Virus record (IMG/VR): IMGVR_UViG_3300010366_000009
Coordinates: 1 to 36,761 of that record
Source: a virus
Taxonomy: Duplodnaviria; Caudoviricetes
Length of the DNA stretch: 36,761 nucleotides
Reading direction: 5' to 3' (one strand)
The number at the start of each line of letters is the position of its first letter. The first letter of the stretch is position 1. Shown piece by piece: positions 1-36,761 of this stretch. The notes beneath the pieces were generated by a model. That model saw nothing but the letters and a program-made list of their open reading frames with translations, was not told the DNA's origin and ran no database searches. The translations under genes were made by a program, and so were the position numbers.

Positions 1-123
1 CGTATGGATGACAACGGTATCGCCGACGGAGAACAGGGGCGCCGTCGAGCGGGGGCGATATTCGACGCGGAAGTTTCCAGAACTGGCGCCCAGGGGCGGA
101 ACCGTGAAATCTTCGGATAACAC
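1..123. repeat. Terminal direct repeat (assembly overlap of a circular genome), left copy
   Basis: 1-123 is identical to 36639-36761, and a reading frame runs through the join. Confidence 0.97.
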
Positions 124-777
124 CGCGACCCCCGGCGTCACGATTTCGAGTCCATCGATCGCGCGTTCGTAGTCGGTCACGAATGACGTGACGTGCATTT
201 CGCGCGACCAGAACGTTTGTGTTTCGGCGTTGCCGCCCGCGTCGACGATCCAGCCGGCGGTCCGCGATGCCCAATTCGTCGCGCCGATCGACGCCAGTCG
301 CGGATTCCCTGAGAATGCGGGTTGTGATCCCGTCCCCGTCGACGTCAAGACTTGCCCGGTTGCGACCGCCGGCAGGCCGACCAGGGACGTCGCGCCCGCG
401 GCGACGACCAGATCACCCGGCGTCCAGGACGCCCGGCCGGTTCCGCCCGATCCGACGGGTAACGGCGTCGACAGGAGCAGCGCCCCGCCGATCGTCACAC
501 TGCCGTTGAACGTCTGATTCGCGGTAAACGTGTTGGTATCCTCCGCGCGAATCAGCAGCGTCCAGGCGCCCCCGTTGCGGCGCGTATAGACTTCGCCGGT
601 CGCCGTGTCCAGGTACGTGTCGCACTGGACGCCGCCCGTCGGCGCCCCGTTGCCACTGGAAATCGTGCACGGGCCGGTATTCAACGTCAGACGATCCACA
701 TAGACGGACTGCGCCCCGCCGCGGAGTCCCGCCAGGACGATCAGGATCGCGACGGCGGGGCGTCGTCTATTCCACAT
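1..777 (-). CDS. 5' part of ~1053-aa tail fibre/receptor-binding-like protein with N-terminal signal peptide (continues at 36638-34254)
   Basis: Manual translation from ATG 777: MWNRRRPAVAILIVLAGLRGGAQSVYVDRLTLNTGPC...TPGVAVLSEDF, open and in frame with the 835-aa ORF; the ATG overlaps the upstream stop (ATGTGGAATAG); GGGG 7 nt upstream. Confidence 0.85.
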   Translation of the reverse strand, partial: MWNRRRPAVAILIVLAGLRGGAQSVYVDRLTLNTGPCTISSGNGAPTGGVQCDTYLDTATGEVYTRRNGGAWTLLIRAEDTNTFTANQTFNGSVTIGGALLLSTPLPVGSGGTGRASWTPGDLVVAAGATSLVGLPAVATGQVLTSTGTGSQPAFSGNPRLASIGATNWASRTAGWIVDAGGNAETQTFWSREMHVTSFVTDYERAIDGLEIVTPGVAVLSEDFTVPPLGASSGNFRVEYRPRSTAPLFSVGDTVVIHT

Positions 778-2494
778 ACGCGACCCCGAAGACGTCGGCA
801 TTGGCGACACTGGGTTGTAACTGGAGTTCATAAAACTTCGCCCCCGCCGTCAGCGTCACGGTAAACACGACGGTTTGCCACGCGGTCCCTGTGACGGGCG
901 CCGACGTGCCGGGGGCGGCGATCCCGTCGGTGACGTTGTAGAGGCGCGCGACGACCGACGGGCCGGCGGTCGCGACGCGCAACCGCGCCGTCACCGTCGC
1001 GACCGTTGATCCGCGCGTCGTCGTGTCGATCTGGATCTGGATCGCCCCTTGCCCGATCGCCGCCCCGCCGGTCGCCGGGACCCAGGCGCCCGCCGTCGCC
1101 GTGCGTTTGGCTTCCAGGCCCGACCCCCCCAGGAAATACGACGTCCGGCCCGTCCCGCCGCCGCCGCCCGTCGGCCCGCCCGTGGCGGGGGCCGGCAAGA
1201 CCGCCGCCGCCGCGGTCCCCCCGATCCCGGACCACTGACGAAACAGCACGTCGGCCGGCGGACTCTGAAACGCCGTCCCCTCTAGCGCCGTGACCGTCCG
1301 CCGGAGCGATCGATCCAGTGTGTTGGTGATCTGGACGTCGGTAATCAGAAAGACCGCGGATAGGCCGCGGGTCGGCAGATTAAGATACTGGACTTGTCCC
1401 GGATGCAATCCCAGATCGTCCGTCTGGTACTGCACGCGTTTGGCGACGACGGTCCCCGTCGTCAGATACGCCTGTCCATAGGCGATCGCGTCGGCGCGCG
1501 TCCACACATCGGGTTGCGCGACCACCATGTCCCAGATCCCGCGCGCCGCTTGTTCCGTGGCGTTGTCGACGACGACGGACACGGGATACTGCGCGATGTA
1601 GTCGATCGCGATCGCGTCGCCCGCGGGAAACGGCGCGTCCCCGGTCCGTTGGTAGATCGTGTGGGTAACGGCGTCCCACTGGACGGCATACCCCGACGCG
1701 GGGGTCCCGGGTTCGTACGGTCCCAACGCCAGATTGACGCCGTTGTGCATGACAACCCCCGGCCAGTCATTGGTCGCGGGAAAGTCCGTCGTCCACTGCC
1801 GCGCGACCCCGTCGGCGGTCCACGCTTGATGCGTGCGCGCCGTGCCGGATCCGATCTGGACGATCACGCGATTGCAGTACTGGCCGGCGGTCCGTTGCGG
1901 GTCGACGGTGACGTCGCCGATCAGGTGCCCGTCGCCCGCCGCGATGTCGAACGGCGCCGCGCGCGTCCCCGCCTGGAACGCGCGCAGGACTTTGTTGTAG
2001 TCGATTTCCCAGAGATAGCCCGCCGCAGCCAACGCGCACGCTTCCCCCAGGGCGTCCCGGACGACCTTGTCGTACGCGTAGGGCACGGCGGGTAACGCCG
2101 GCCCGTCCGCCTGGGTGGGATCGAGCGTCACGCCCGGGAGATACGCCAGCATCGCCGTCAGAAAGGCTTTCAGACTGCCGGCGGGGACGGTCGTCGCGAC
2201 GTGTTGCCGTTCGGCCAGTCCGCTGTAGTCACTCGCCGTGATCGTCGTCACGATCGGCGGCAACCCCACGCCGCCGACGCCCGCTTCGGCCGCGCGATCG
2301 ATCGTCCCGCCGAAAATGCGGACGCCGTCTTCCGTGATCACGATGTCACTGTCCAGGGCGGGGCGATAGCTGCCGTTGGTCGACACGACGCCCAGGCGCA
2401 GCGTATTACGCGCGTTCTGGGTTTCCGTGATCTGTAGCGAATGCATCGTCCACCGTTGCACGACGCCGCCAATCGTCAGGACGTACGTCGCCAT
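767..2494 (-). CDS. Tail tip/baseplate hub-like minor tail protein (575 aa)
   Basis: Directly downstream of tape measure; Tal/hub-like pattern (FGGTID, WEIDYNKVL, NRVIV, LHPGQ, FLITDV); Gly-rich linker to a C-terminal beta domain. Confidence 0.7.
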   Translation of the reverse strand: MATYVLTIGGVVQRWTMHSLQITETQNARNTLRLGVVSTNGSYRPALDSDIVITEDGVRIFGGTIDRAAEAGVGGVGLPPIVTTITASDYSGLAERQHVATTVPAGSLKAFLTAMLAYLPGVTLDPTQADGPALPAVPYAYDKVVRDALGEACALAAAGYLWEIDYNKVLRAFQAGTRAAPFDIAAGDGHLIGDVTVDPQRTAGQYCNRVIVQIGSGTARTHQAWTADGVARQWTTDFPATNDWPGVVMHNGVNLALGPYEPGTPASGYAVQWDAVTHTIYQRTGDAPFPAGDAIAIDYIAQYPVSVVVDNATEQAARGIWDMVVAQPDVWTRADAIAYGQAYLTTGTVVAKRVQYQTDDLGLHPGQVQYLNLPTRGLSAVFLITDVQITNTLDRSLRRTVTALEGTAFQSPPADVLFRQWSGIGGTAAAAVLPAPATGGPTGGGGGTGRTSYFLGGSGLEAKRTATAGAWVPATGGAAIGQGAIQIQIDTTTRGSTVATVTARLRVATAGPSVVARLYNVTDGIAAPGTSAPVTGTAWQTVVFTVTLTAGAKFYELQLQPSVANADVFGVAYVE

Positions 2495-2506: not shown

Positions 2507-5113
2507 TTAGCGATTCAACCCGTTCGTGTACACGTAATCCGCCGTGGCGCGCGCGATTTCGCGGGAATCGACCTGGACACTGGTTTGCAGATTGATCGTC
2601 CCCGACCCGCCGGCCGGTTGGCGCAGCAGCGCCGTTCCCGTCCCACCGCCCAACGCGGGCCCGCCCGCGGTCGCGAGTCCCCCGGGCGCCCCCGGCATCG
2701 GCAGGTTGTAGACCGCTTGCGCGACGTCGTTCAGGAACCCCGTCACGGCGGTCGACCAGTCTTTCCAGGCCGACTGGTTGTCGGCCAGTTTACTGTTGAC
2801 TTGATCTAACGCCGCCGCCGCCGCGGTCGCGGTTTCCACCGTCGCTTGCGCCTGTTGTTCGTTCGACACGGTGACGACGTCGGCGGCGTTTTGTTGCGCC
2901 TGTTTCTGTTGGTCCAGGGCGTCGGTCACTTGCTGGATCGCCGCTTGCGCCGCGGCGGGGTCGTTGCGCCCGACGCCCTGGGTCAGCTTGATCCACAACT
3001 GTTCGCCGGACTCGCCCAGGTCGTCTAACTTTGCATGTAGGGCGTCAAACCCGCCCATGGAATTCGCAAACGATACGACGGCGTCCCGTCCCGCCGTGCC
3101 CATCCCAAACAGTTTCGAGATCAACCCGCCGATCGCTTTCCCCGCTTCGATCGCCGCCGACACCATCCCCATGATCCCCGACGAAAAATTCAGGATGCCC
3201 GACAGGCTGGACGCTGATCCCGCTTTCAGGTCCGCGAAACTGGTCCGCATGTCTTTTAGGGCGCCCGTCGCTTTCCCCATGTCGCCGATCATCTTGCCGA
3301 CGTCGCCGCCCACGGCGGTCGCTAGCGTGTTGAACCCGGTTTCCAGGTTTTGAATCGAGACGCCCATTTCCTTATTCTTCGCGATGATCGCGTCGGCGCC
3401 GGCTTTGAATCCGTCGCTGACTTTGAAGCCCAGGTTGTCGAAACTGGCGGACGCCTCAGCGAGTTTCCGCCCCAGGACGTCCAGTTCGGCGCCTAATTGG
3501 GCTTCCTGGGGAATCGCCAGCTTCACGGCGGTCCCGAACTTGTCCATGCCGTCGGTACTGACGGACAGATTCGGGATCATCTTGCCCGTGACGTCGACGA
3601 TCGCCAGTAACCGATCGGTCAGCCGGGCCCCTTCCCCCTGTAATTTCACGGCTTCGTCCGCGATGTTGTTCAGTTGCTGTTCGGTAATCTGCCCGCTGTC
3701 GGCGAGTTTCCGGAAGACAAGGTCCAGGATTTTCATTTGTTCGGTCGCCGCCCCGCCCGAATACTTTTTGAACGCGGCGTCGACGGCGTCGGCGAATCGC
3801 TTGGCTTCGTCTTCCGCTTTCTTCCACGCCGCCCGGGTCTTCTCGCCGAAATCCTCCGATTCCGCTTTCAGGTCTTTCAGACGTTGCGTGATATCGTCGG
3901 TAAACCCCTTGAACGGTGCGGGGTCCGGTGGTTTCATTTTCGCGATGTCTTGATTCAGATCCGTCACGGCTTTGTCGGCGGCATTCATCCAGCCGATCGC
4001 CAGGGACGTATTCCCCGACAGATCGACCAACGCGGCGGCATAGTCACTCAGCGATCTTTGATATTTCTCCGCGGATTCGCCGACGCCGGTAATGGATCGC
4101 TGCAACGCATCCAGGAGTTTCACGATCTGCGGATCGGTCACGATCGCTTTGCCGACCGCTTCTTTGAAATTGTCCCATTCGTTGGCGATCTGTTTGATGC
4201 GCCCCGCGTAGGTTTCCGCTTCCGCCGCCGCCTGTCCGCCAAACTTGCTGTTGATCGCGTCCAGGACTTCCGACATGTCCATGCCGGGCCGGTAAGCGTC
4301 GCCCAGGAGTTTCCCCAGCTTGCCGATCGACTCGCCCCCTTCGGCGAACGCTTTGGCGACCAGCATCGTCGCGTTCTTCAGATCGATCCCCAGGCCCGAC
4401 GCCAGATTCGTCGACGCCGTGAGCGCCGCGTCCATTTGGGCGGGGGCAACGTTGCCGACTTGCGTCAACAGCGATTCCATTTCGTTGATTAGGTCGTCGC
4501 TGTAGACCGTCGTGCGCTGGAACTGGGTCGCCAGATCGTTGAACGCGGCGATCGTTTGCGGCGTCGCGGTCCCTTGGGCCATCAGGGCGGTCGTCATTTT
4601 CTTGGCGGCGAGTTCGGCATTACCGTACGCGGTAATCGAGTCGCCGACGAACTCCGTCAGCACGCGAAACCCTTCTTTCGCTGTGTCCAGGATTGCCGTC
4701 CCACTGATCAGCCCCAGCATCGTCCCTTTGATTTCGGTGCCCAGATCGCCCATCGTCTTCGTCAGTTCGGTCGGTTCGGCCCGTTTCGTCGCGTCGCGCA
4801 GCGCGATCATATCGGCGGGCGCCTGTTCGCCCAGGGCGGCGTATTTCTTGATCGCGTCGTCCAGGAGTGCATTCAATTTCGCTTGTTCGGTTTCCGTCAG
4901 GGCGGTCGCCCCGCCGATCTTGCCGACCGCGACCACGGCGGTCTGCGCCTGATCGATCAAGCGTTGCCCGGAAAAGTTTGTCACCATGCGGGTCAACGCG
5001 CCTTCCGCTTTCGATGCGCCGCTGTCCAGCGTGGTCAGTGACGCCGCCGCTTTGGTGACGGCGTCATAGAAGCTTGAAAAGTCCGCCTGGAGTTTCCCGG
5101 TAACGGCCGCCAT
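2507..5113 (-). CDS. Tape measure protein (868 aa)
   Basis: Long Ala/Gly-rich helical protein after the frameshifting chaperone; KFGGQAAAEAETYAG..NEWDNFKEAVG motif; C-terminal VQVDSREIAR. Confidence 0.92.
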   Translation of the reverse strand: MAAVTGKLQADFSSFYDAVTKAAASLTTLDSGASKAEGALTRMVTNFSGQRLIDQAQTAVVAVGKIGGATALTETEQAKLNALLDDAIKKYAALGEQAPADMIALRDATKRAEPTELTKTMGDLGTEIKGTMLGLISGTAILDTAKEGFRVLTEFVGDSITAYGNAELAAKKMTTALMAQGTATPQTIAAFNDLATQFQRTTVYSDDLINEMESLLTQVGNVAPAQMDAALTASTNLASGLGIDLKNATMLVAKAFAEGGESIGKLGKLLGDAYRPGMDMSEVLDAINSKFGGQAAAEAETYAGRIKQIANEWDNFKEAVGKAIVTDPQIVKLLDALQRSITGVGESAEKYQRSLSDYAAALVDLSGNTSLAIGWMNAADKAVTDLNQDIAKMKPPDPAPFKGFTDDITQRLKDLKAESEDFGEKTRAAWKKAEDEAKRFADAVDAAFKKYSGGAATEQMKILDLVFRKLADSGQITEQQLNNIADEAVKLQGEGARLTDRLLAIVDVTGKMIPNLSVSTDGMDKFGTAVKLAIPQEAQLGAELDVLGRKLAEASASFDNLGFKVSDGFKAGADAIIAKNKEMGVSIQNLETGFNTLATAVGGDVGKMIGDMGKATGALKDMRTSFADLKAGSASSLSGILNFSSGIMGMVSAAIEAGKAIGGLISKLFGMGTAGRDAVVSFANSMGGFDALHAKLDDLGESGEQLWIKLTQGVGRNDPAAAQAAIQQVTDALDQQKQAQQNAADVVTVSNEQQAQATVETATAAAAALDQVNSKLADNQSAWKDWSTAVTGFLNDVAQAVYNLPMPGAPGGLATAGGPALGGGTGTALLRQPAGGSGTINLQTSVQVDSREIARATADYVYTNGLNR

Positions 5114-8007: not shown

Positions 8008-8742
8008 TCAGCCGCGCCCCCGCGCCGCGTCGAAGACTTGATCCCAGTCGCGCCCCCGCGGGCCGGCCGGTCCGGTCGCGCCGTCTTTCCCGGGCCGGCC
8101 ACATTTGACCGCCAGGGTCCAGCCCGTCGTCCGGTCGTCGGGTTTGCTGGTCGTCGGCGCGTCGCAATGCCACATCGATCCGCCCCAGGTCACCACGTCG
8201 CCGCGCGCGTAGCTGGCGCCCGCCTGGAACACGCCGCGATAGCGCGTGACGGGCAACGCCACGGGAAACGCTTTGACGACATCCCCACGGGTAAAGCGGA
8301 TCGTGATCGTGCGGTCGCCGTCGTCGTCGACCGTCAGATCGTCGAATCCCAGCCCGTCCAGGCCGTCGCGGCCATCGGCGCCGGCCGCGCCCGTCGGACC
8401 CGGGACGGGCGGTCGGGCTTCCACGCCCGCGATCCGTTCGCGCACGGCGGCGATCGCGTCGGGGACGCCCGCCAGCACGCCCAGGCGGGCGTCCAGCGTG
8501 ACGACGCGTTCGGTCAGGGGCGCCAGGGCGCCCGCCACGACAGCGCCCACGTCGTCCCCGCGGGCGCCCAGGGCGACCGTCGTGTCGTGGTCGGCGGCGA
8601 CGGTCCGTGCCAGATCCGCGACGCGGCCCTGGACGACGTCGACCGCCCCTTCGATGCGCGTCAGCCGGTCGACCACGGGGCGCATCGCCCGATCGACGGC
8701 ATCTAGGACCGCGTCGGCGATCGCGTCGACGTCAGGCTGCAT
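8008..8742 (-). CDS. Portal-adjacent coiled-coil/collagen protein with small carbohydrate-binding-like domain
   Basis: Helical N-terminus, GPTGAAGADGRDG collagen triplets, YRGVF..YARGDVVTWGGSMWHC module. Confidence 0.65.
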   Translation of the reverse strand: MQPDVDAIADAVLDAVDRAMRPVVDRLTRIEGAVDVVQGRVADLARTVAADHDTTVALGARGDDVGAVVAGALAPLTERVVTLDARLGVLAGVPDAIAAVRERIAGVEARPPVPGPTGAAGADGRDGLDGLGFDDLTVDDDGDRTITIRFTRGDVVKAFPVALPVTRYRGVFQAGASYARGDVVTWGGSMWHCDAPTTSKPDDRTTGWTLAVKCGRPGKDGATGPAGPRGRDWDQVFDAARGRG

Positions 8743-10147
8743 GACGACTCCGGATCCCGCGCCGGATCGCCGCGGCGACGTCGGTCCCAAACGTCTTGCC
8801 GGCATCGGGAGGGCCGGCCGGCGGCGCGGGCGGCGTCGCGGGCGTCGGTTTCGCGAACGGATCCGCTTTGTCGCGTTTCGCTAGGGCGTTCAGGGAGTAG
8901 TACTGCTGTTGCACCATCGGCGAGTCCCCGCCCGTCGCCGGCCCGACGCCGTAGTACTTTTTCCGCGCTTCGTTGGGCGACAGCACGCCCGCCGACTTCG
9001 TCGCCGCATCCGCCCGCGTTTTCGTGTCCATCCAGATCAAATCGTCGATGTCGAATTCGGTCCCGTACTGCGTCCCGTCGATCGGCGTCAGCAGGCCCAA
9101 CCCGACGTCTAACGATCGTTCGATCGCCGTCAGGAGTGTCTGTAAACATTGCGAGTAGTACAACTGGACGAGCGGTTCAATGTTGGCGTAGGGCGGCGGG
9201 ACGCCGATCCCGATCATGTAGGGCGCGACGTGGAAACACGCGCACACGTCGTCGGCGGTCCATTTCAATTGGTCGATCAACTGCGCGTCGACCGCCGACA
9301 TGGCCATCGCGTCGTACTTCAACCCGTCGCCCAGGACGGCGATTTTCCCCATGTTGTCGCCGCTGAAATTGTCCCGCCAGTAGGCGGCGAGTCGTTGCGC
9401 CGTCTCGTTCGAAATCGCGCCCGGCGCCAGGAGCACGCCGCCCGGGTGGGATCCGTTGGCGAAAAACGCCGTGGAGTTCGCCTGGATCTTGAGGCCCTGA
9501 TACGCCGCCATGCCGCACGCGTAGATCAGCGACACGCCGACCAACGGGTGATATAGCGCGACCATGGGATCGTGGATGATGTCGTCGGCCGGGACCGTGA
9601 TCGGTTCCGGGAGTTCCGCCAGATAGTCCGTCTGGAGTTCGTAGTACACCGACCCGTCGGGCGCGACCAGACACCGCACGCGTTGCGGGGCCAGGACGTA
9701 GAGTTCGCGCACGACATTGCGATTGTCGCGCGCCTTCAACACGTACGCGTTGCCCCAAATTAATTTCGTGACGATCCACTGTTCGACAAATTTCTGGATC
9801 GTTTGATACGGATTCGGTTTGCGGAGCACGGCGGAAAACGCTGGCGTGGACGTTTCGGTCCAGATCCCGTCGCTCGTTTGCTGCACCAGCCGCAAGCACA
9901 ATTTCCCGATGTCGGACGCGATCAGAGTGATACAGGCGTAGACCGCGAAATACGACAGGACGGAATCGGCGCGGAGCACCATGTTTTGTTGCCACGCGCC
10001 CGTAAACGATTCGCGAATGACGGGCCACCAATACCCCGCCCAGCCGTACCCCGCTTGCCCGATCGGTTGCGCGTTCCCCGGCGGCGTGACGTTGTCGACG
10101 CCCGTCGCTTTCGTGCGCCGCGTAATCGATAGGCCGAACAGATCCAC
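8732..10147 (-). CDS. Portal protein (HK97 family)
   Basis: AVYACITLIASDIGKL, LRKPNPYQT, GNAYV, FFANGSHPGGVL, FHVAPYMIG, LSPNEAR. Confidence 0.95.
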   Translation of the reverse strand: MDLFGLSITRRTKATGVDNVTPPGNAQPIGQAGYGWAGYWWPVIRESFTGAWQQNMVLRADSVLSYFAVYACITLIASDIGKLCLRLVQQTSDGIWTETSTPAFSAVLRKPNPYQTIQKFVEQWIVTKLIWGNAYVLKARDNRNVVRELYVLAPQRVRCLVAPDGSVYYELQTDYLAELPEPITVPADDIIHDPMVALYHPLVGVSLIYACGMAAYQGLKIQANSTAFFANGSHPGGVLLAPGAISNETAQRLAAYWRDNFSGDNMGKIAVLGDGLKYDAMAMSAVDAQLIDQLKWTADDVCACFHVAPYMIGIGVPPPYANIEPLVQLYYSQCLQTLLTAIERSLDVGLGLLTPIDGTQYGTEFDIDDLIWMDTKTRADAATKSAGVLSPNEARKKYYGVGPATGGDSPMVQQQYYSLNALAKRDKADPFAKPTPATPPAPPAGPPDAGKTFGTDVAAAIRRGIRSRHAA

Positions 10148-17682: not shown

Positions 17683-18735
17683 CTAGATCGCTGTCCCGTC
17701 GGGCATGCGGACCCCGTCGCCTGATCCCCAGACGACCGCGCCTTTCGACGCGCGCGTACAACACGCCAGGAATCCCAACGCGTCATGCTGGTCTTCGTCG
17801 GGATAATCGCCAACAAACGACAGAATCGCGGAGAACTCGCACGCGCGGATCTTGTGTCGGTTGCCCTGTTCGCCGAATTGTTTCAGCGTGTCGACTAAGC
17901 GAGATTGAAACTCGCCGATGTCCCATCGCGATCCGTCGGGCGGAATCGGTTCGTTGAATGTCACTGGGACCGCTTGATAGTCGATCCCGTCGACGTCGCC
18001 GCCCAGGTCATCCCAGAACCCATAGCGCCCGCGGGGATCGCCATCAGCAAACCAGGACGTCACTTCGGTCGAAAAATGCGCCCAACACGACGCGCCCGCG
18101 CCGTGCGCCTGTTGTCCCACCCACTTGAAAAAATCGATCGTCGGCCGACCTGGAACGTTGCCCAAGTTCCATTCGCCGCCCGGGGTGAATTCGTCGACGG
18201 CGTTGGCGCGACAGAGTTTCCCGACGATCGATTCGAATCGCCGTTTCAGATCGTCGGCGGACAGATCGTGCGGGTCGGCGTCTTTCGCCCACAGCCAGAC
18301 TTTGACGTACGGGACGCCCAGGGATTTCAAGTACAGGCAGTCGTCCACGAATTGTTCTTCACTGTTCCCGCCGTCGACACGGGCGTTCCCCCACCAGCGC
18401 AGCCAGTGGGTATAGCCGCGCGCGGCATTTTCAGCGACCATCCGCGGCCACCACTCCCGCCGGTCGTACTTGTAATCGAGTCCTTGGACCAACCGTTCGG
18501 GATGCTCCAACGATCCGCCCGACCACGGGACATTCCCGGGCACGAACGGCAACCCGGGCACAACGACCGACCAGAACGATCCCCGTAAGAAATCGCGCGC
18601 CAGCGACGGCGACGCGGGGAGCGTTTGATCGTAGCTGGTCGGCGTCGGACACGTATAGCAGGTCGGAAAGACCAGCGGCGCGCGCGTGACGGCGTCGCCA
18701 TACACGCGATGATGCGCGAACGTGATCGGGGTCAT
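17683..18735 (-). CDS. Putative TIM-barrel glycoside hydrolase (clan GH-A-like); candidate endolysin catalytic subunit
   Basis: Alternating beta/alpha pattern: RGYTHW, VKVWL, GGEWN (possible acid/base Glu), WAHF, DGIDYQ, ACEF (possible nucleophile); Trp-rich; ATGA overlap. Confidence 0.5.
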   Translation of the reverse strand: MTPITFAHHRVYGDAVTRAPLVFPTCYTCPTPTSYDQTLPASPSLARDFLRGSFWSVVVPGLPFVPGNVPWSGGSLEHPERLVQGLDYKYDRREWWPRMVAENAARGYTHWLRWWGNARVDGGNSEEQFVDDCLYLKSLGVPYVKVWLWAKDADPHDLSADDLKRRFESIVGKLCRANAVDEFTPGGEWNLGNVPGRPTIDFFKWVGQQAHGAGASCWAHFSTEVTSWFADGDPRGRYGFWDDLGGDVDGIDYQAVPVTFNEPIPPDGSRWDIGEFQSRLVDTLKQFGEQGNRHKIRACEFSAILSFVGDYPDEDQHDALGFLACCTRASKGAVVWGSGDGVRMPDGTAI

Positions 18736-19142
18736 GAAATCACATCCATGACAAACGCGCACGACACAAACTTCCCGACGCTCGGATCGCTGTACTCCAC
18801 TTGCCCCGTCAACGCGCCGAATTGATTCCCGTCATAGATCGACGGCGATTCGTACCCCGCGCGTCCCTCCGCGGCGGGTTTCAGGTAGAACTGTGCGCCG
18901 ATGTCGCCCGAAAATTGCGTCGCATCGATGCCGAACAGATCCCCGGTTTGCACGTGAACCAGTTGAAAGTACGCGTCGGGTTTCGTCAGTTGAAACTGAT
19001 ATCGCGCGTCGTTCCGGTCGGCGCCGTCCCAAATCAGACCGCGCCATCCCCGATTGAGACTCCCGAACGGGCCTGTGTTGGGTTCGTCGGCGCGGGCATA
19101 TTTGCCGGCCGGTCCCTTAATCGCCACCAGTTTGCTATCCAT
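18732..19142 (-). CDS. Small all-beta protein, possibly fascin/beta-trefoil-like (136 aa)
   Basis: VAIKGPAGKYARAD, FQLTK, FQLVHVQTGDLFGID; strong SD GGAAGGAAGGGAAG. Confidence 0.5.
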   Translation of the reverse strand: MDSKLVAIKGPAGKYARADEPNTGPFGSLNRGWRGLIWDGADRNDARYQFQLTKPDAYFQLVHVQTGDLFGIDATQFSGDIGAQFYLKPAAEGRAGYESPSIYDGNQFGALTGQVEYSDPSVGKFVSCAFVMDVIS

Positions 19143-19186
19143 ACGCTTCCCTTCCTTCCGTCGATACGGACCGCGTCGTGCCGCGG

Positions 19187-19327
19187 TCACGGGAGCAACC
19201 ACGCCAGGACGACCAGCGCGAACGCCGCGCGCGTCAGCTTGTCGGGCACATTACCGGACAGATACGCGGCGACGCCGAACAGGACGAACGCCAGCACGAT
19301 CACGAGTAGTCGCAGGGTCGGAGTCAT
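19187..19327 (-). CDS. 46-aa two-TM membrane protein (holin-like)
   Basis: MTPTLRLLVIVLAFVLFGVAAYLSGNVPDKLTRAAFALVVLAWLLP; AAAGGGGGG SD. Confidence 0.6.
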   Translation of the reverse strand: MTPTLRLLVIVLAFVLFGVAAYLSGNVPDKLTRAAFALVVLAWLLP

Positions 19328-24013: not shown

Positions 24014-24981
24014 TGGTCGTCCGATCCGGGTTCGCGGTCGGCGGGTTTCTTGCCGAACACTTCGTCGACGGTCGGCGCCGTCGTCTTCGGCGCGCCGTTC
24101 TTCGGCGGCGGCGGCGTCTTCGGCGCGGACTTCGTCGCGTGTTGCTGGACCCAGTCGTCGACCTTGACGGTCCATTTCTGATTCGGATGGTTCTGGTACT
24201 TGGGACAGCCGTAAAACGGCGGGCGTCCGTCTTTCCCGGGCCGATAGACGCCAGGGGCGCCACAGACCGCGCACACGGGCGGATCGATCGCCGGTCCTTT
24301 GTCGCCGAATCCGCCGACGCGTTCGTTCTGGGTGCCGAACCCGCGTCCCTTCCGGCAACGGTCGGTCGTCTTCGGCGTCCCCGCCCAGGCGCGTTCGAGT
24401 TCCTGGAGCGGTACGGACTTCATCCCCGCGAGTTCGCGCGTGATCCCGCCGTCCAGATTCGCGCGCGCCGCTTTGCGGACCGCCATGTCCAGCGCCGCGC
24501 CGGTCTTGCCTTTGCAGAAATCGTCTTTCGACGATCGGCCCCCTTCCATGTGTTCGACGATTTCATGGGTCAACGTACATTCGCCGTCGCCCGTGATCTC
24601 GTACATGAAATCGCCGGGATCGACGCCGACGATTTTTTCGGGGGCGCCGATGTTGTAGATCCGAATCCCCCACAACCCGCGGACGCGGTCGCAGCCGGCG
24701 TCTTCCAGGTAGGCGACGATCTGCCCGCCATCTTCGACGCGGGCGCGAAACAAGACCCAATCTTCGGGATGGGTCGCACGGATCGACGCGTAGCGGAGCG
24801 TATCGAGAATCTGGACGCGCGCCGTGATGATGTCGACCGCGTCCCCTTTCAGGGCGGCGAGTTCGCCCAGGGTTACCGGGACGTCGGGCCGACGTAGCGT
24901 CGACGTATCGGCGTGCGGACTGTCGGCGACGATCGGATCGTCGTCGACGTCATGGTCGCGGTCGCGGGAATCAACTGGCAT
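24010..24981 (-). CDS. Putative ssDNA-annealing protein with C-terminal zinc ribbon
   Basis: Rad52/Sak-like layout (YLEDAGCDRV..GI, EGGRSS, VRKAARAN..ELAG); CAVCG...FYGCPKY; upstream of exonuclease. Confidence 0.55.
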   Translation of the reverse strand: MPVDSRDRDHDVDDDPIVADSPHADTSTLRRPDVPVTLGELAALKGDAVDIITARVQILDTLRYASIRATHPEDWVLFRARVEDGGQIVAYLEDAGCDRVRGLWGIRIYNIGAPEKIVGVDPGDFMYEITGDGECTLTHEIVEHMEGGRSSKDDFCKGKTGAALDMAVRKAARANLDGGITRELAGMKSVPLQELERAWAGTPKTTDRCRKGRGFGTQNERVGGFGDKGPAIDPPVCAVCGAPGVYRPGKDGRPPFYGCPKYQNHPNQKWTVKVDDWVQQHATKSAPKTPPPPKNGAPKTTAPTVDEVFGKKPADREPGSDDQ

Positions 24982-24985
24982 CGGC

Positions 24986-25351
24986 TTACCCCCTTCGTCG
25001 TCGGAGATGTCGCCCGAATGGGCGTGGGGACATGGGTTCGGTCGCGCGGACCGCGGTCCCGAACTGTTCGGCGGTACAGCGATCACACAGGAGTTCGCCG
25101 CTGCCGGCCCGCCGGTAGAACGGCAACCCGCATGACCCACACGCGTCGACGCGGTCGTCGCCTGGACCGTCGACGACGATGCGATCCGGCCAGACCCAAT
25201 CGGGGCCGACGGCGCCAGGGGTCCGTTGCAAGCGGACTTTCCAGTACGACCCCGTCCCGTCGGAACGCTCGCAGCGTAGGAGCACACCGCGGCGTCCGTC
25301 GACGCGAACGCGCAACCCGTGGCGGAATCCTTCCGTAGATCGACACGCCAT
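24986..25351 (-). CDS. Hypothetical protein with C-terminal CxxC...CxxC
   Basis: CGSC...CDRC; packed directly after the cro-like gene. Confidence 0.6.
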   Translation of the reverse strand: MACRSTEGFRHGLRVRVDGRRGVLLRCERSDGTGSYWKVRLQRTPGAVGPDWVWPDRIVVDGPGDDRVDACGSCGLPFYRRAGSGELLCDRCTAEQFGTAVRATEPMSPRPFGRHLRRRRG

Positions 25352-25358
25352 GACGGGG

Positions 25359-25622
25359 TTACCGCGACGACGGCGTCGACTGTTCGTGGTACTTCGGAAA
25401 CCGGACGGGCGGGGCTTCGACGATCGTCAGCAGTTCGTCCGCCGTCAGGTTCAACGCCGCCGCCAGTCGGACGACAATCAGGAATTCAGATCGCCGGATG
25501 ATGCGGCGTTGCCGGGGATCGACGCTTTCCCAGCGGGTAATCAGGGACGGATCACACCCCGCGCGTTTAGCCAGGGTCCGTTTGTCGATCTGGGCAATCT
25601 TGCGGGCCAGTTTAAGCGACAT
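25359..25622 (-). CDS. Cro-like XRE HTH regulator
   Basis: LKLARKIAQIDKRTLAKRAGCDPSLITRWES...LAAALNLTADEL; divergent from the repressor. Confidence 0.8.
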   Translation of the reverse strand: MSLKLARKIAQIDKRTLAKRAGCDPSLITRWESVDPRQRRIIRRSEFLIVVRLAAALNLTADELLTIVEAPPVRFPKYHEQSTPSSR

Positions 25623-25653
25623 GATGCACCTTTGCCCCAACCCTGAAAAGGGG

Positions 25654-25698
25654 ACCATACACCCGTCGCTTGACATGAAACAAGATTTTTCTTACGGT
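25654..25698. promoter_or_regulatory. Divergent overlapping promoters of the genetic switch, with possible operator
   Basis: Plus strand TTGACA(25670)-17nt-TACGGT; minus strand TTGTTT-18nt-TATGGT; palindrome CTTG-N8-CAAG at 25669-25684 overlaps both -35 boxes. Confidence 0.65.
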
Positions 25699-25732
25699 TC
25701 AGACGGGAACCCGCCCACGCAAAGGGGAACTT

Positions 25733-26398
25733 ATGCCACGTCGTACCCGTCGCCCGCCTCTGCATTTGGATGCCACGACGTTAATGCGCGCGGGCGATCG
25801 CGTGACTGCGTATCGGTTGGCACATGGTGTGAAACGCGGTCACCGCACGTATCCGTTATCGCAAGAAATCTTAGCGCGGCGCGCAGGAGTATCGGCCGGA
25901 TGTATACGGGGCTTCGAAACGGGGACGCGTCGGACAACCGTGCCCAAGATGACACGGATCGCCGCCGCCTGCGAACTGACGTTCGACCAGTTGATCGCGC
26001 CGACCGCCGTCCCGATTCCGTCGCCCCCGCCCGACTTCGTCGTCACGGCGGTCGCCGACGTCGAAGCGATGGAACGCTTGACGTTGACCGACGAAGCGTT
26101 CGCGATCGCGCGCCTGTTCAGCGTCGCGCATACGGAAGTCCGGATCCACGTGAAACAACTGTTGCGCGATCACGTGACGCAGCGCACCGATTCGCGCGCG
26201 CGTCGCGTCGTGCAAACCATTCCCGTGACGGTTCTGGGGATCGTCACGCCCCCGTCGGCGATCGCCAGCGTCGCCGATGTCCCGTCCGCCCCTGTCACGC
26301 TGACGTCGTTCTTGTTGCGAGTGCTCCAAGCAACGCCGGAACAGGTCCAGGCCGCGGATGCTGCTATCACCCGGACGTCCGGCCGGGTGACCGCCTAA
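25733..26398 (+). CDS. CI-like XRE repressor
   Basis: LSQEILARRAGVSAGCIRGFETG..KMTRIAAACELTFDQL; SD AAGGGG; no recognisable S24 peptidase domain. Confidence 0.8.
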   Translation: MPRRTRRPPLHLDATTLMRAGDRVTAYRLAHGVKRGHRTYPLSQEILARRAGVSAGCIRGFETGTRRTTVPKMTRIAAACELTFDQLIAPTAVPIPSPPPDFVVTAVADVEAMERLTLTDEAFAIARLFSVAHTEVRIHVKQLLRDHVTQRTDSRARRVVQTIPVTVLGIVTPPSAIASVADVPSAPVTLTSFLLRVLQATPEQVQAADAAITRTSGRVTA

Positions 26399-26446
26399 CC
26401 CCGTTGGTGAATGTGTTGGCATGTGTAAGGGAGACAGGGTGTTGTT

Positions 26447-26659
26447 ATGAACGGCGTCCGTTTTGTCGATGCGATCGAATCGCGGTTACTGGCGTTGGTC
26501 CAGATCCACGCCGAATTGTTGTTGTACGACCCCACCGCGGCGTCGACGTTAGAAGGGTTAGAGCGTCAATGCCTGGACGAAGTCCGCGCCGCACGCTCTG
26601 CCCGGGCCGGCCGGCCCATCCCGTTACGCCTGATCGTGTCCAATCCCGCCCTATCATGA
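26447..26659 (+). CDS. Hypothetical helical protein (70 aa)
   Basis: Follows the repressor; amphipathic helices. Confidence 0.5.
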   Translation: MNGVRFVDAIESRLLALVQIHAELLLYDPTAASTLEGLERQCLDEVRAARSARAGRPIPLRLIVSNPALS

Positions 26660-26755
26660 CGGGTGCGTAAAATCCGACCACGTCGTACGTAATCGCACCA
26701 CGGGATTTCGGACGCCCGACCGCCGTGTCGGGGTTTGGGATAGGAGCGTTCGCGC

Positions 26756-31923: not shown

Positions 31924-32277
31924 TCACGGACCCGGGGCGATCGGCATGACGCCCGCGATCAGATTCCAGTCGGTCATCAACTGTGATTCGATGTCGGCGT
32001 CGCCCGCCGCTGTGACGACCGCACTGGCCGGGAAACTGTACGCCGTCGCAAACGCCAGCAGGTTCGGCCGTTCGACCAGCCAATAGCAGATCGGCGGCGT
32101 CGCGCCGATCAGGTTCTTGATTGTCTGGTTGGCGTAGTTCCAGCGGACGTCGTGATACGGCGTCGCGGGATCTTCCTGCAAGACTTGCCACGCGACGTTG
32201 GCTAGACACGAGCGGACGCGCGTCTGGAACGTCAGGTCCGCCGCTAACGCTTGTTGCGAGTACGAATCATTCGGCAT
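31924..32277 (-). CDS. Hypothetical protein at the end of the late operon
   Basis: SD GGAAGGGG; FQTRVRSCL...DADIESQL. Confidence 0.7.
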   Translation of the reverse strand: MPNDSYSQQALAADLTFQTRVRSCLANVAWQVLQEDPATPYHDVRWNYANQTIKNLIGATPPICYWLVERPNLLAFATAYSFPASAVVTAAGDADIESQLMTDWNLIAGVMPIAPGP

Positions 32278-32295: not shown

Positions 32296-33267
32296 TTACC
32301 GCATCGCGTAGACGCGATGGTGCACGTACGGGGTTGACGGGGGTTTTGGCGGATCCGGTTTGGGCGGGGTCGGGTCCGGCGGCGTCGGGCCGGGATCGGG
32401 CGGGACGGGATCGGGCGGGACGGGGTCGGGCGGCGTCGGGCCGGGATCGGGCGGCGGAACGAGCGGCGACAAGGGGACCGCCGTCACGTCGTACGCTTGC
32501 CGGCGGATCTGGCCGGGTTGTTCCGCTTCCGACGACGACAGCGCAAACAGGACGACCGTCCCAAACGCGCGCGCCGTGTGCCACGCATCGACGCCGACGG
32601 GGACGACGACGATCCCGTCGGTCGACGCAAACGGATGCAGCACGATCCCGACGGCGTCACTGTAGTAGCTCACCCACCATGCCCCGTTGATGTAATGCGC
32701 CTGCGGACGCCACGCGCGCCCGACCTGTTGCGGGATCGGCAGACCCGCCACGCGCAGGTAATTCCCTTCCTGCCAAATCGCTTGCCGCCGGCCGACGATG
32801 TCCAGGTCATAGGCGTGTCCGGGGGTAATCTGCCATGCGGTCCCGTCGGGTTCGCGACAGATCGTCGGGCCGGTCGATTGGTACTGCGGTTTGTGGCCGA
32901 TCGCGCCTGTCGTCGCGCCGACGGCGAGTAACCCCGCGTCGGGCGCATGCCAGCCGTCCGACGTGAACAGGCCGCGTTGCGGACCCGTCCCCGCCAACCA
33001 CCCGGCCCACACGCCGCCGCCGGCATAGCCGCTGTTCCAGCCGGCGGCGTATTGAGGATTAGCCGGATTGAGAACGGCGCGACGGATCGCGCCGGAGGAT
33101 TGGACATAGACGGACGCGATCCAGTTATCGTCGCCATTGGCGAAAAACGCGCGATCGTCGTCGATCCAGCCGCCCCAGGCGCCGCGCGAGAACGCGACAT
33201 TGTCGATCGACGCGAATCCGCCGCCCGTCCCGTGCCCGACTTGTTGTCGCCCGTTAATCGTCGACAT
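32296..33267 (-). CDS. Trp/Gly-rich beta protein (propeller-like) with Pro-rich C-terminal stalk (323 aa)
   Basis: Start MSTINGR with SD AAAGGGG; repeated short beta strands; (PPDPG/V)n tail ending PYVHHRVYAMR. Confidence 0.65.
   Translation of the reverse strand: MSTINGRQQVGHGTGGGFASIDNVAFSRGAWGGWIDDDRAFFANGDDNWIASVYVQSSGAIRRAVLNPANPQYAAGWNSGYAGGGVWAGWLAGTGPQRGLFTSDGWHAPDAGLLAVGATTGAIGHKPQYQSTGPTICREPDGTAWQITPGHAYDLDIVGRRQAIWQEGNYLRVAGLPIPQQVGRAWRPQAHYINGAWWVSYYSDAVGIVLHPFASTDGIVVVPVGVDAWHTARAFGTVVLFALSSSEAEQPGQIRRQAYDVTAVPLSPLVPPPDPGPTPPDPVPPDPVPPDPGPTPPDPTPPKPDPPKPPSTPYVHHRVYAMR
32341..32460 (-). repeat. Coding 15-21 nt repeats (PPDPG/PPDPV/PPKP)
   Basis: Repeated GGATCGGGCGG / GGGTCGGGCGG units on the plus strand. 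Confidence 0.8.
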
Positions 33268-33529
33268 CGGTCGCCCCTTTCCACGTCCAGAACGGTCCGC
33301 CGAATAGGAGATGCCACAGCAGCGATCCGAAGATCGCCCCGCCCAGGATCCGCCAGACCCATCGATGCTTGATGTGTTTTTTGATCCACTGCGACAGATC
33401 GGGCCGATGCGTATGCAGCAAATACCAATCAATCGCCAACACGCCGACCGCCAGGGCGACCCAAATCCAGCCGGCGACGTTGGACGCCGCGGGGTCGTCG
33501 ACGGGCGGGACATCGGGACACTGGATCAT
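33254..33529 (-). CDS. Two-TM membrane protein (holin candidate)
   Basis: GWIWVALAVGVLAIDWYLL and WRILGGAIFGSLLWHLLF; ATGA overlap. Confidence 0.65.
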   Translation of the reverse strand: MIQCPDVPPVDDPAASNVAGWIWVALAVGVLAIDWYLLHTHRPDLSQWIKKHIKHRWVWRILGGAIFGSLLWHLLFGGPFWTWKGATDVDD

Positions 33530-33852
33530 TTCGGTTTGGGCACGTACGTCCAGGCGTCGACGTTCAGGTCGTAGCCGTCGCGTTCCAACGCTTTCAGTTT
33601 TTGCTGTAACGCCGCTTGGGTTTGCTGAAATTGGATCGTCAGCAATTGCACTTGCGCCTGAATCAACTGCAATTTTTGGACGTCGTTCTGGACCTGGGCA
33701 TGGGCGAGTTCGCCCGGCGGCGGCGGGATCGCGCCCGGCAACGCCGCGGCGATCGCCGACGGCGCCGCGCCATGGCGGGTCGTCGACGCATAGACGACGG
33801 CGACGACGCCCAGGAGTGCGATCCCGATCGCGACGACAAAACGATTGGTCAT
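33526..33852 (-). CDS. Signal/TM-anchored coiled-coil protein
   Basis: MTNRFVVAIGIALLGVVAVVYA, Pro linker, Gln/Leu heptads. Confidence 0.7.
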   Translation of the reverse strand: MTNRFVVAIGIALLGVVAVVYASTTRHGAAPSAIAAALPGAIPPPPGELAHAQVQNDVQKLQLIQAQVQLLTIQFQQTQAALQQKLKALERDGYDLNVDAWTYVPKPK

Positions 33853-34241
33853 GATTTCCCTTTCGTGGTCGGGACGATGCGGGCCGGCCCGATCTTCCCT
33901 TCGGTAATCAAATGTTGCAGAAGTCGCGCATCCAGAGACGTCGATCCTGGCGCGACGACCAATTCGCGAATCAACCGCGGCGCGTCGGTCCCTTCCGTGT
34001 GGACGTCGACATATTCCGTCCCGCGATTGTCGGCGTAGCGGATCGTCAGATTCCAGGACGACCGCACGGGCGGCGGCGATGCCAGCGTCGTCGACGGCGG
34101 CGTAAACAACGTCGCGGGGGTCGTGATGGACAGGCCGACGATTTCATAGGCCCGGATCGTCGCGTCCACCGTCCGCGGATGCGTCAATTCGGCCCGATCC
34201 TGGGTAAGCGCCAGCAGCACGACGACGACGAGCACGCGCAT
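33849..34241 (-). CDS. Protein with short signal-peptide-like N-terminus
   Basis: MRVLVVVVLLALTQ; SD GAGG; directly after the fibre gene. Confidence 0.65.
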   Translation of the reverse strand: MRVLVVVVLLALTQDRAELTHPRTVDATIRAYEIVGLSITTPATLFTPPSTTLASPPPVRSSWNLTIRYADNRGTEYVDVHTEGTDAPRLIRELVVAPGSTSLDARLLQHLITEGKIGPARIVPTTKGKS

Positions 34242-34253
34242 GTTACTTACCTC

Positions 34254-36761
34254 TCAAGCGCATTTGTAGAGCAGTCCGTCCGTACTCCCGATGCAGACGT
34301 GATTGCCGCCCGGCGTAGCGTACATGTTGGGCATATAGATGTACGTCCCGCTGAACCGCGTCGACCCATCGCTATTGAGATCAAGCGTCTGACTGTTCCC
34401 CGCCGCGCCGATATGGGTTTGCCCGTTCGTAATGTTGAACGCCCCGCCGTAACTGTTCGATTGAATCTGGATTTGATCCTGCGCGAAGAATTGGACGTTG
34501 CCCGCGACGTTGACGTTAGATCCGGCCGACGAAATTTGGACGTTGGCCCCGCTGAGCGTCATCCACGCGCCCCCGTCCCATTGCAGGCCGATCGACGACC
34601 CGTTCCACTTGTACCAATTGCATTGCCCCCCCGTCGGTCCGCTGAGGGAGATCCCGCTGGTATTCAGCGTCGCGCACCCGGCCGTCAGGGTGGAACTCGT
34701 AATCGTCGACGACGTGATCCCAACCGCCGACAGATTGCCGGCCGTAATCGTGCCCAGGTTCGCCGTGATCGCCGATAGCGTTGCGACACTTAATTTGTCC
34801 GCCGTGATCGTGCCGGCGGCAATGTTCCCCGCGGTGACGGTCCCGGCGGCGAGATTGCCGCCCGTGATCGTCGCGCCGGCAATGTTCCCGCCCGTGATCG
34901 TCCCGGCGGCAATTTGCGCCGATGTGATCGTCCCGGCGGCGAGATTCCCCGCCGTGATCGTCGTGCCGGCAATGTTCCCCCCGGTAATCGTGCCGGCGGC
35001 GATCTTCGCTCCTGTGATCGTCCCGCCGGCAATGTTCGCCGCCAGGATCGTATTCGCGGCGATTTCGGTCGTCGTGATTGTCCCGGCCTGGATCTGGCCG
35101 GCGGTAATCGTGTTGGCGACCAAGCGATCGCCCGTGAGACTGGCGGCGCGAATATGGCCCGATCCGATCTGGATCTGCATTTCGACATCGTCGAAGTAGA
35201 GCGTTTGACAGGTCGCGCCCGACGCCCGACACGTGTAGTTATACAAATCGATTGACAGCCAATGGACGTTCGCCGGAACCGTGTACGTAAACTCCCGATG
35301 ATTCCAGCCCGTCGACGCGACCGAACAATTCCCACAGACGTCGGTAATCGACGTGTAGGCGACGTCGGACCCGCTGGCGGCGGCTTCCCGGACGTAGCGG
35401 ACGTACCCCTGGGTCGACGTACTTTCATTCAGCCGGACGTACAACCCGGCCGACGTTTGTCCGTTGACGTCGAACGCGATCCGATAGGTTTGGCCGGCGG
35501 CGACGGGGATCGCGTAATAGATCAGACTGTTGAACCCGCCGGCCACGGTCGCGATCCCGGCCATCATCGGCCCTTCGGTGCCCAGCGTCGTCCACACGAT
35601 CGACGCGCTACCGCCCGCGGTATCGTCCTGGGACCAGCCAGCGAGTCCTTCGGTCGCCGTCCGCCCTTCGAACGCCGCATTTTTGATCATGTTGTCGCCA
35701 AACCCCGTCGCTTGCAGACTGCCGACCGTGATCGAATTCGCTTGGATGTTCCCGCCGTTAATGTTCGTGACCCCCGACCCTTCGCCGGCAAGTGTCAACG
35801 CCACGCCGTCCCAGGCGACGCGCGTCCCGCCCGGCGTCCCCAGGCGAAACTTGTACGTCCCGTCACTGTCGCGCCCGGCCCATAGGCCATTCGCGCCCGT
35901 GCCAAACCCCGTCGGGATCGGGTTGCCGATCGCCAGACTTGGCGCCGTCGGCGAGAGACTAATGGTTTTCGTCGCGCCGTCGTACAGGTCTAACGGTAGG
36001 CCGGCGATTTCCGCGTTTTGATCGGAGATCCGCACATAGTGACGTCCCGTGAAATCGCCGGCCAGGATCCCGTATTCGCCGACGCCCGTGAGTCCGCGCA
36101 GGTTCCCCCAGCGGGTCCGCGGCGTGACGCCATAGGTCGGCGATCCGGCCCACGTACTGACTTGGACATACGGCGTGTTGACGCCGTACGCGCCAACCGC
36201 CGCACACCCGTTCACACAGACCGCGGGCGTCGACGTCGCGCCCGACAGCGTGTAGGTAAACGTCGACGCGCCCGTGACCGTGACGACAAACGCGCCGTTG
36301 TACGGCGGTTGGGACGCGCCGGAAATCACGACCGTATCGCCCGTCAGAAATCCGTGCGGCGTGTTTGTCGTCGCGGTCGCGGTCGTCCCGGCCGACGTCA
36401 TGCTGACTAACTGGGTCGGCGCCGTCGCGTTGGTTTCGACGAATCCCTGTCCCGACACGCCGTAGTCCAGGACGATCGTTTTCGCCGGGACGATCGCCGC
36501 CCCCGCCATCGTCCCGCCCGTGTTGACGCCACTGCCCCGCGTAAAGGTCCACTGCTGATACGTCGGGTTCGTCGTGTCGGGTCCACTGACGGTCCCGATC
36601 GCGTCACTCACGGTTAACGCCCCGCCGCCGCGGGAATACGTATGGATGACAACGGTATCGCCGACGGAGAACAGGGGCGCCGTCGAGCGGGGGCGATATT
36701 CGACGCGGAAGTTTCCAGAACTGGCGCCCAGGGGCGGAACCGTGAAATCTTCGGATAACAC
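34254..36761 (-). CDS. 3' part of ~1053-aa tail fibre/receptor-binding-like protein
   Basis: PHGFLTGDTVVISGA..YNG module, CBM4/9-like domain (NMIKNAAFE...LYFDDVE), 10-aa repeats, beta-rich tip. Confidence 0.85.
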   Translation of the reverse strand: MLSEDFTVPPLGASSGNFRVEYRPRSTAPLFSVGDTVVIHTYSRGGGALTVSDAIGTVSGPDTTNPTYQQWTFTRGSGVNTGGTMAGAAIVPAKTIVLDYGVSGQGFVETNATAPTQLVSMTSAGTTATATTNTPHGFLTGDTVVISGASQPPYNGAFVVTVTGASTFTYTLSGATSTPAVCVNGCAAVGAYGVNTPYVQVSTWAGSPTYGVTPRTRWGNLRGLTGVGEYGILAGDFTGRHYVRISDQNAEIAGLPLDLYDGATKTISLSPTAPSLAIGNPIPTGFGTGANGLWAGRDSDGTYKFRLGTPGGTRVAWDGVALTLAGEGSGVTNINGGNIQANSITVGSLQATGFGDNMIKNAAFEGRTATEGLAGWSQDDTAGGSASIVWTTLGTEGPMMAGIATVAGGFNSLIYYAIPVAAGQTYRIAFDVNGQTSAGLYVRLNESTSTQGYVRYVREAAASGSDVAYTSITDVCGNCSVASTGWNHREFTYTVPANVHWLSIDLYNYTCRASGATCQTLYFDDVEMQIQIGSGHIRAASLTGDRLVANTITAGQIQAGTITTTEIAANTILAANIAGGTITGAKIAAGTITGGNIAGTTITAGNLAAGTITSAQIAAGTITGGNIAGATITGGNLAAGTVTAGNIAAGTITADKLSVATLSAITANLGTITAGNLSAVGITSSTITSSTLTAGCATLNTSGISLSGPTGGQCNWYKWNGSSIGLQWDGGAWMTLSGANVQISSAGSNVNVAGNVQFFAQDQIQIQSNSYGGAFNITNGQTHIGAAGNSQTLDLNSDGSTRFSGTYIYMPNMYATPGGNHVCIGSTDGLLYKCA
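34792..35151 (-). repeat. About twelve 30-nt coding repeats (AAGTITxxNI/L)
   Basis: Repeated CCGTGATCGTNCCGGCGGCAATGTT-like units on the plus strand. Confidence 0.9.
36639..36761. repeat. Terminal direct repeat, right copy
   Basis: Identical to 1-123. Confidence 0.97.

Follow-up and report, generated by a model that had tools for sequence, protein, structure and literature searches.

The window analysed here, i.e., the whole stretch of 36,761 nucleotides of viral DNA, is the complete circular genome of a temperate siphovirus from soil. Its bases 1-123 recur as bases 36639-36761, which yields a circle of 36,638 bp. The join of both ends is real, because an identical 1,053-aa fibre protein (P0001 in the protein collection) is encoded on a 36,779-bp contig and because a separately assembled contig of 36,660 bp, taken from a public run that is possibly the source run, spans the junction, with window bases 1-2600 lying internally at its positions 24130-26729; an assembly artefact as source of the joined reading frame is thereby excluded. 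Just inside the end repeat, at positions 124, 127 and 130, three third-codon-position differences towards another assembly were found, which leave the P0001 protein unchanged. Pfam and PHROG searches identified an HK97-type terminase, portal and protease-capsid together with a major tail protein and a serine integrase, and these head genes, tail protein and integrase reveal the temperate siphovirus. The coordinates of the features discussed are compiled in Table 1.

Table 1. Positions of the fibre locus features and of context genes within the window
Feature	Position	Strand	Remarks
Fibre gene, 5' part (residues 1-259)	1..777	-	bases 1-123 = end repeat
Predicted Sec/SPase I signal peptide (residues 1-22), cut GGA/Q	712..777	-	hydropathy, rule-based scan, alignment with AxA/Q leaders
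Mature fibre N-terminus (residues 23-75): Q-x-V-x-A-D-R-x-x-L strand and knob with Cys37/Cys52	553..711	-	
C-terminal jelly-roll of the tip protein (residues 450-575), after flexible linker	770..1147	-	
Tail-tip hub domain, Tal/T4 gp27/Mu gp44 fold (residues 1-410 of 575 aa), no leader	1265..2494	-	
Likely tape-measure gene, 868 aa (context)	2507..5113	-	upstream of hub, after major tail and chaperone genes
Serine integrase, temperate phage (context)	29421..31226	+	Resolvase, Recombinase, Zn ribbon; phrog_95
Family B accessory protein, 108 aa, coiled-coil, leader-bearing	33526..33852	-	11/27 leader-fibre loci, 0/11 others
Family A accessory protein, 130 aa, leader-bearing	33849..34241	-	9/27 leader-fibre loci, 0/11 others
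Fibre gene, 3' part (residues 260-1053)	34254..36638	-	PHROG tail-fibre matches phrog_892, 28766, 1101
Direct end repeat, 123 bp, copy of bases 1-123	36639..36761	.	assembly overlap, circular genome

Within this context the tape-measure candidate gave no confident family match, and the gene following the portal (8008-8805, minus strand) gave a match to the C-terminal extension that some portal families carry, besides weak matches to CBM_5_12 and collagen. No endolysin was recognisable in the window by Pfam; candidates for lysis functions are proteins of 350, 136, 323 and 91 aa encoded on the minus strand at 17683-19202 and 32296-33529, among which the 323-aa protein possesses a proline-rich linker and the 91-aa protein is a two-helix membrane protein. 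As to the host, homologues of the tip protein carry the names of a Luteitalea sp. genome (Acidobacteriota, Vicinamibacterales) and of a Gemmatimonadales bin, one each. Acidobacteriota and Gemmatimonadales are diderm groups and hence a periplasm is likely for the host. A genome search for hosts gave matches to the fibre core in 10 loci, all of them leaderless and none from Acidobacteriota.

The fibre gene is divided by the window ends and its joined minus-strand frame runs from the ATG at 777 through the junction to 34254, encoding 1,053 aa with one stop. The original prediction of a joined ORF of about this length which begins with a Sec-type leader cut at GGA/Q (the slash marking the predicted cut) was confirmed by the end repeat, P0001, hydropathy and the conserved motif. 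The N-terminus reads MWNRRR-PAVAILIVLAGL-RGGA/QSV, whereby the n-region carries a net charge of +3 and residues 9-15 form the most hydrophobic 7-mer of the entire fibre (KD 3.83). According to our own rule, the basic n-region, the hydrophobic h-region and the small residues at -3/-1 that characterize a Sec/SPase I leader are all present, at a position conserved in homologues. The leader is slightly atypical in having Arg at -4 and Gly at -3; the textbook AxA/Q leaders of relatives align at the same Gln, and genes behind tip homologues begin MKKLLFLLLFFPSFVQA/Q, MTTSRFLLLLALLLALEAPAAA/Q and similar. As a chance control, the rule was applied to 18 further proteins with head, tail or late functions that are encoded upstream of the fibre, of which it flagged one (weakly); it also flagged both genes directly behind the fibre. 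A Tat signal was rejected, as the consensus S/T-R-R-x-F-L-K is replaced here by NRRRPAV and many relatives start with MKK, MKT or MR, and so was a lipoprotein (SPase II) leader, since there is no lipobox, the +1 residue is Gln and the first Cys is residue 37.

The start of the fibre gene is embedded in the preceding gene, with the ATG located 11 nt inside the 3' end of the gene for the 575-aa tip protein (stop at 767-769), and in most loci the fibre start overlaps or abuts the hub stop. Thus the claim that the fibre follows the tail-tip gene was borne out, and the overlap is consistent with the translational coupling that had been claimed alongside. An alternative in-frame ATG is found at 831, 18 codons upstream, but the genes of relatives begin at the hub stop instead, and a mis-called start was rejected on these grounds. 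Downstream, an in-frame GTG occurs at fibre residue 27. Nevertheless, homologues were not found to start downstream, as internal start codons showed no conservation among the 22 of 27 entries covered, and 4 of these 22 are free of any internal start.

The question whether homologues keep the N-terminus was answered by two sets of proteins, in which leader and Gln at +1 are retained. Leaders were called by a rule considering charge, a hydrophobic 8-mer and small residues at -3/-1, which gives a Gln bonus when placing the cut site, makes a few false calls in both directions and missed two obvious leaders. In the first set, from which duplicates and 5'-truncated loci had been removed beforehand and in which near-duplicates remain, 37 of the 76 proteins in which the fibre core or knob is present possess a leader by this rule, with Gln at +1 in 36 of the 37. 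The second set derives from a core profile search which returned 2,543 clusters, and among the best 150 of these, 51 representatives are leader-bearing, 6 hub-fused and 93 otherwise leaderless; Gln at +1 is found in 46 of the 51 leader-bearing ones, about two of whose leaders look false. Leader-bearing proteins are richer in cysteine, with a median of 0.92 vs 0.22 Cys per 100 aa for leaderless members of the 76-protein set and 0.71 vs 0.23 within the best 150 of 2,543 clusters. Likewise, even Cys counts were found in 31/37 leader-bearing vs 19/39 other proteins and, among the best 150 clusters, in 40/51 vs 55/99. As the sets compared in this analysis hold relatives and near-duplicates, p-values overstate independence. 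P0001 possesses 12 Cys arranged in six close pairs, as expected for disulfides formed in an oxidising compartment. The Gln at +1 resembles the Bacteroidetes Q-rule, and the part of the Q-rule report that was accessible (PMC5837995) makes no mention of Acidobacteria.

Some members of the family depart from this pattern. L059:5999-9277, P0137 and P0174 are leader-bearing and Cys-poor, and as L059 belongs to a low-GC locus and a separate branch, its leader was probably gained independently. Several relatives encode, behind the main fibre, a second family of fibre-like proteins that bear leaders and have the start of the mature form in common (L022:12756-14024, L041:8909-10219, L061:9802-11682 and L099:7995-9377); these are possibly branch fibres.

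Downstream of the leader, conservation within the fibre is highest in the mature N-terminal strand, and C37 and C52 of the knob are invariant across 18 aligned fibres; within the best 150 of 2,543 clusters, the Cys knob was found in 37 of 51 leader-bearing vs 6 of 99 other representatives. This mature N-terminus is likely the docking end of the fibre. It is followed by a conserved core (residues 157-445), A-G-T-I-T repeats (approximately 760-905) and a Cys-paired C-terminus, and residues ~575-745 are likely to form a carbohydrate-binding module. CBM_4_9 was detected in 3 of 18 relatives and an S74 domain in 2 of 18, the 1,053-aa fibre itself being without S74 and without any Pfam match, as are the tip protein and the helpers. 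Scanning 18 fibre members with Pfam identified no membrane or wall anchor (YadA, lipobox, T9SS, wall), a PDB sequence search with the 18-fibre profile gave 0 matches, a locus search with fibre residues 1-259 yielded no match, and the ESM Atlas returned unnamed viral clusters only (best 0.85, a lead only). Fibre residues 90-570 share 57% identity with P0006, a hub-fibre fusion whose first 476 residues are a hub domain and which is placed as sister to the window fibre by a quick tree of the core (SH-aLRT 99). Further hub-fibre fusions (L018, L048, L063) reside directly behind the tape-measure gene. Among cultured phages, the core matched Salinibacter phages only, whereby the virion protein of M8CR30-2 was reached with E 6e-12 via the relative L003. 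Judged by sequence, i.e., by hub-fused homologues, PHROG matches and tail-operon position, the fibre body is a true tail fibre, and it deviates from the view of tail fibres as cytoplasmic proteins devoid of export signals by its conserved leader and paired Cys.

The tip protein combines two structural units. For the hub domain an AlphaFold2 model (pLDDT 83) was obtained, for which Foldseek identified 3cdd (E 1.7e-17) and Mu gp44 (1wru, E 9.7e-14), and the C-terminal jelly-roll was modelled with a pLDDT of 91.8, its nearest folds being those of CBMs and TNF-like lectins (Z 8-9) with no standout match. A search of cultured phages with the tip protein gave no match. The jelly-roll likely is the dock for the exported fibre; judged by its modelled fold, it could itself be a receptor binder. 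The former assignment derives from the genomic pairing of both elements, as a leader fibre is found next to or within three genes of the hub gene in 26/26 loci with jelly-roll vs 1/12 without, counted over 38 distinct loci in which the hub gene is complete, after removal of truncated and duplicate ones, leader calls being made by eye and by rule and some loci having been found via the fibre, which biases the set. Among loci outside profile building the pairing was 10/10 vs 1/12, and among those found by hub queries alone 13/13 vs 1/9 (hand tally). Hub-fibre fusions are devoid of the jelly-roll (0/4 loci, 0/6 cluster representatives). On a 45-row hub tree the jelly-roll/leader state changes 11 times, at least 8 of these changes being forced by well-supported branches, which documents repeated swapping rather than one inherited event. 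Moreover, the sequence of the jelly-roll co-varies with residues 1-14 of the mature fibre once the hub is allowed for (partial r 0.46, reached in 1 of 2,000 permutations, 26 phages), the value for hub with N-terminus being 0.03. Both co-occurrence and co-variation are also expected from physical linkage, as jelly-roll and leader are usually adjacent DNA.

The jelly-roll was also found apart from a hub. In the podovirus-like L078, whose genome encodes a giant ejection-type protein, it ends a 207-aa collagen protein encoded directly before a leader-plus-knob fibre. L078 was the only non-hub locus with a jelly-roll among the loci examined, and of the searches starting from the jelly-roll, one gave only collagen matches and another yielded no further context for P0195. 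Within the giant protein (L078:2-6310) one stretch resembles a GGDEF diguanylate-cyclase domain. P0195 and P0196 (261 and 276 aa) are short leaderless fibres ending in a jelly-roll without a hub domain and are candidate adaptors in another tail type. The sole exception to the pairing, L005:11165-12133, is a leader-bearing, Cys-containing fibre-like gene of a large phage beside a long hub protein without jelly-roll. Both designs coexist in L031 (3381-9304), L032 and L033, where hub, jelly-roll and a leaderless collagen fibre with coiled-coil end are followed two genes later by a Cys-rich fibre that has a leader and is accompanied by helpers A and B; owing to their own leaderless fibre, virions of these phages would not need the exported one.

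Two accessory genes accompany the fibre. The family A protein is likely part of the exported fibre module, and the family B protein is possibly a periplasmic fibre chaperone. Rz-type spanins possess an uncleaved membrane anchor, a coiled coil and a partner lipoprotein; matches of family B to these were weak and confined to single members (best E 0.0037), and many members carry a cleavable-looking A/Q leader. The leaderless family D (phrog_1401) shows the opposite distribution, being present in 5/11 other loci and 0/27 leader-fibre loci, so that the entire fibre module appears to change compartment together, as far as this distribution of predicted leaders indicates. Homology between helper B and family D was considered and rejected, as no similarity was found. 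The window further encodes a 117-aa leaderless protein (31924-32277, minus strand) whose homologues in L018, L055 and L031-L033 directly follow cytoplasmic fibres, and it is present though the window phage is without such a cytoplasmic fibre.

Tailed-phage assembly is taught as being wholly cytoplasmic, and late, separate fibre attachment is known for T4. For the phage described here it is suggested that a tail tipped by the jelly-roll is produced in the cytoplasm from the late operon, and that fibre and helpers are exported via Sec, whereby the motif points to leader cleavage before Gln23. In the periplasm the fibre would fold with disulfides, as its paired Cys suggest, with the products of the two leader-bearing genes behind it presumably acting as chaperones. 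The newly exposed N-terminal strand would then bind the hub jelly-roll when lysis mixes the compartments, binding and timing both being suppositions. That the fibre folds in the periplasm and docks on the tail tip at lysis is assigned a probability of roughly 60%; taken separately, export is very likely, given the predicted leaders, and docking to the virion likely, given the pairing of leader and jelly-roll. This reading corresponds to the first of two possibilities offered by the original prediction, namely that the fibre is exported and then joins the virion, which has gained good indirect support from the hub-fused homologues, the detection of a homologue in virions by MS and the co-varying tip domain, so that the original prediction is supported in part. 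Two interchangeable designs may hence be distinguished, i.e., the hub-fibre fusion, which would be cytoplasmic, Cys-poor and served by a leaderless helper, vs the two-part module with hub and dock in the cytoplasm and fibre and helpers in the periplasm. Extended to other phages, this would mean a widespread two-compartment assembly, in which virions bearing the jelly-roll are formed without fibres and an oxidised periplasmic fibre stock snaps on at lysis, the dock-plus-leader cassette being portable, swapping with fusions, working on long and short tails and allowing fibre exchange between co-infecting phages outside the cell; this wider picture is seen as somewhat better than an even bet.

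Among the rival explanations, an unlikely one assumes that the fibre is exported and freed at lysis without ever being on the particle, serving as a lectin-like decoy or blocking receptors so that progeny are shielded from cell debris, with the jelly-roll as the real receptor-binding head. The match of the jelly-roll to CBMs and TNF-like lectins, the lack of an anchor on the exported fibre and the additional cytoplasmic fibre of L031-L033 all fit this idea, and the co-variation may be explained by linkage. However, a free decoy would hardly be expected to have a body 57% identical to that of a hub-fused fibre, nor to be conserved best at its mature N-terminal strand, as an attachment end would be; furthermore, fused and split designs replace each other repeatedly on the hub tree, as alternatives for one job would, and the jelly-roll accompanies the leader fibre in another morphotype as well. 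That the fibre was repurposed as a lysogen product, i.e., a surface adhesin or superinfection block resembling Eib or Bdellovibrio MAT, is quite improbable. This was the second possibility of the original prediction, a lysogen surface or secreted protein, and it found weak support at best: the phage is temperate, exported phage-like fibres occur in bacteria according to the accessible part of one report (PMC10769870) and Porphyromonas prophage signal-peptide genes are read in this way in that of another (PMC10367356), yet in most loci the start of the fibre gene overlaps the hub stop or directly adjoins it, the position of the gene in the late tail operon is fixed, and none of the 18 members scanned has a YadA, lipobox, T9SS or wall anchor. 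A scan around the fibre start for promoter-like sites gave 0, a weak test as the chance expectation is also near 0-1. A shade less probable again is that the leader does not export the functional form, being either an uncleaved membrane tether or bypassed by an internal start that yields a cytoplasmic fibre. The atypical Arg at -4 and Gly at -3 and the GTG at residue 27 would allow for this, but the AxA/Q motif is conserved, paired Cys are restricted to leader-bearing members, internal starts are not conserved and in 4/22 loci missing altogether, and the two helper genes carry leaders as well.

What is new here is the pairing of a jelly-roll candidate dock with an exported fibre. If true, a fibre matured in the periplasm and attaching at lysis would constitute a new assembly route, by which fibres would gain disulfide bonds and envelope modifications, receptor-binding parts would be kept from cytoplasmic defence sensors and host range would hang on a non-covalent plug. 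It would also follow that signal-peptide genes in prophages from soil, which are frequently classed as host-benefit or auxiliary genes, can encode parts of the virion. With a well-folded candidate dock of 125 residues and a short peptide as its partner, the idea is testable in vitro without phage culture.

T4 long tail fibres, the TP901-1 BppU-RBP complex and branched tailspikes are made in a separate pathway and attached last, by the N-terminus, to a small tail domain. To our knowledge, all known steps of these systems are cytoplasmic and none of their components has a signal peptide, the window fibre differing from them in carrying a predicted one. The prophage-encoded Eib trimeric autotransporters are phage-borne, exported fibrous lysogen products that need a C-terminal membrane barrel, which the window fibre does not possess; a trimeric autotransporter (Eib/YadA) was rejected, as the Pfam scan of 18 members identified no anchor family and the C-terminus is a Cys-paired motif. 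The literature search returned no account of tail fibres that are exported and then join virions, most subscription journals lying outside the coverage and PMC13507307 being covered in part. According to the accessible part of the corresponding report, the Bdellovibrio MAT fibres (PMC10769870) are mosaic phage-like proteins of ~1,000 aa with a signal peptide followed by a conserved ~130-aa domain and with S74 or beta-sandwich tips, acting as chromosomal surface adhesins; they thus share size and signal peptide with the window fibre but are encoded outside a phage tail operon. No PDB sequence match links the window fibre to them, and S74 occurs in 2 of 18 relatives but not in the window fibre itself. 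Porphyromonas gingivalis phages encode five Q-rule signal-peptide genes, which the part of the work seen (PMC10367356) reads as host-envelope modifiers; these are alike in having Sec leaders that expose Gln and differ in that they are not described there as fibres or virion parts.

A distant hub-fused homologue is protein 22 of Salinibacter phage M8CR30-2 (M8CR30-2_22, AUO79030; 1,954 aa, leaderless, behind a minor tail gene), annotated as 'Long tail fiber // Structural protein (LC)' on the basis of LC-MS in the portion of the report at hand (PMC5776456). Together with the hub-fused P0006, L018, L048, L055 and L063 it shares the fibre core and the position following the tape-measure gene, and it differs as these do in being one leaderless, Cys-poor polypeptide with neither jelly-roll nor Cys knob. 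Cellulophaga phage phi10:1 (KC821618), a cultured siphovirus, resembles the window in its late genes after the tail module, whose leaders are cut before Gln: gp091-gp094 carry AxA/Q-type leaders and are recorded in GenBank as 'structural protein, experimental MS/MS'. No paper discussing these leaders was found, and the proteins differ in that they were not found as fibre-core homologues, are Cys-poor (0-2) and stem from a phage of a Bacteroidota host. Bearing in mind that secreted proteins which co-purify with virions may also be picked up by MS, gp091-gp094 represent a precedent for leader-bearing proteins in a virion.
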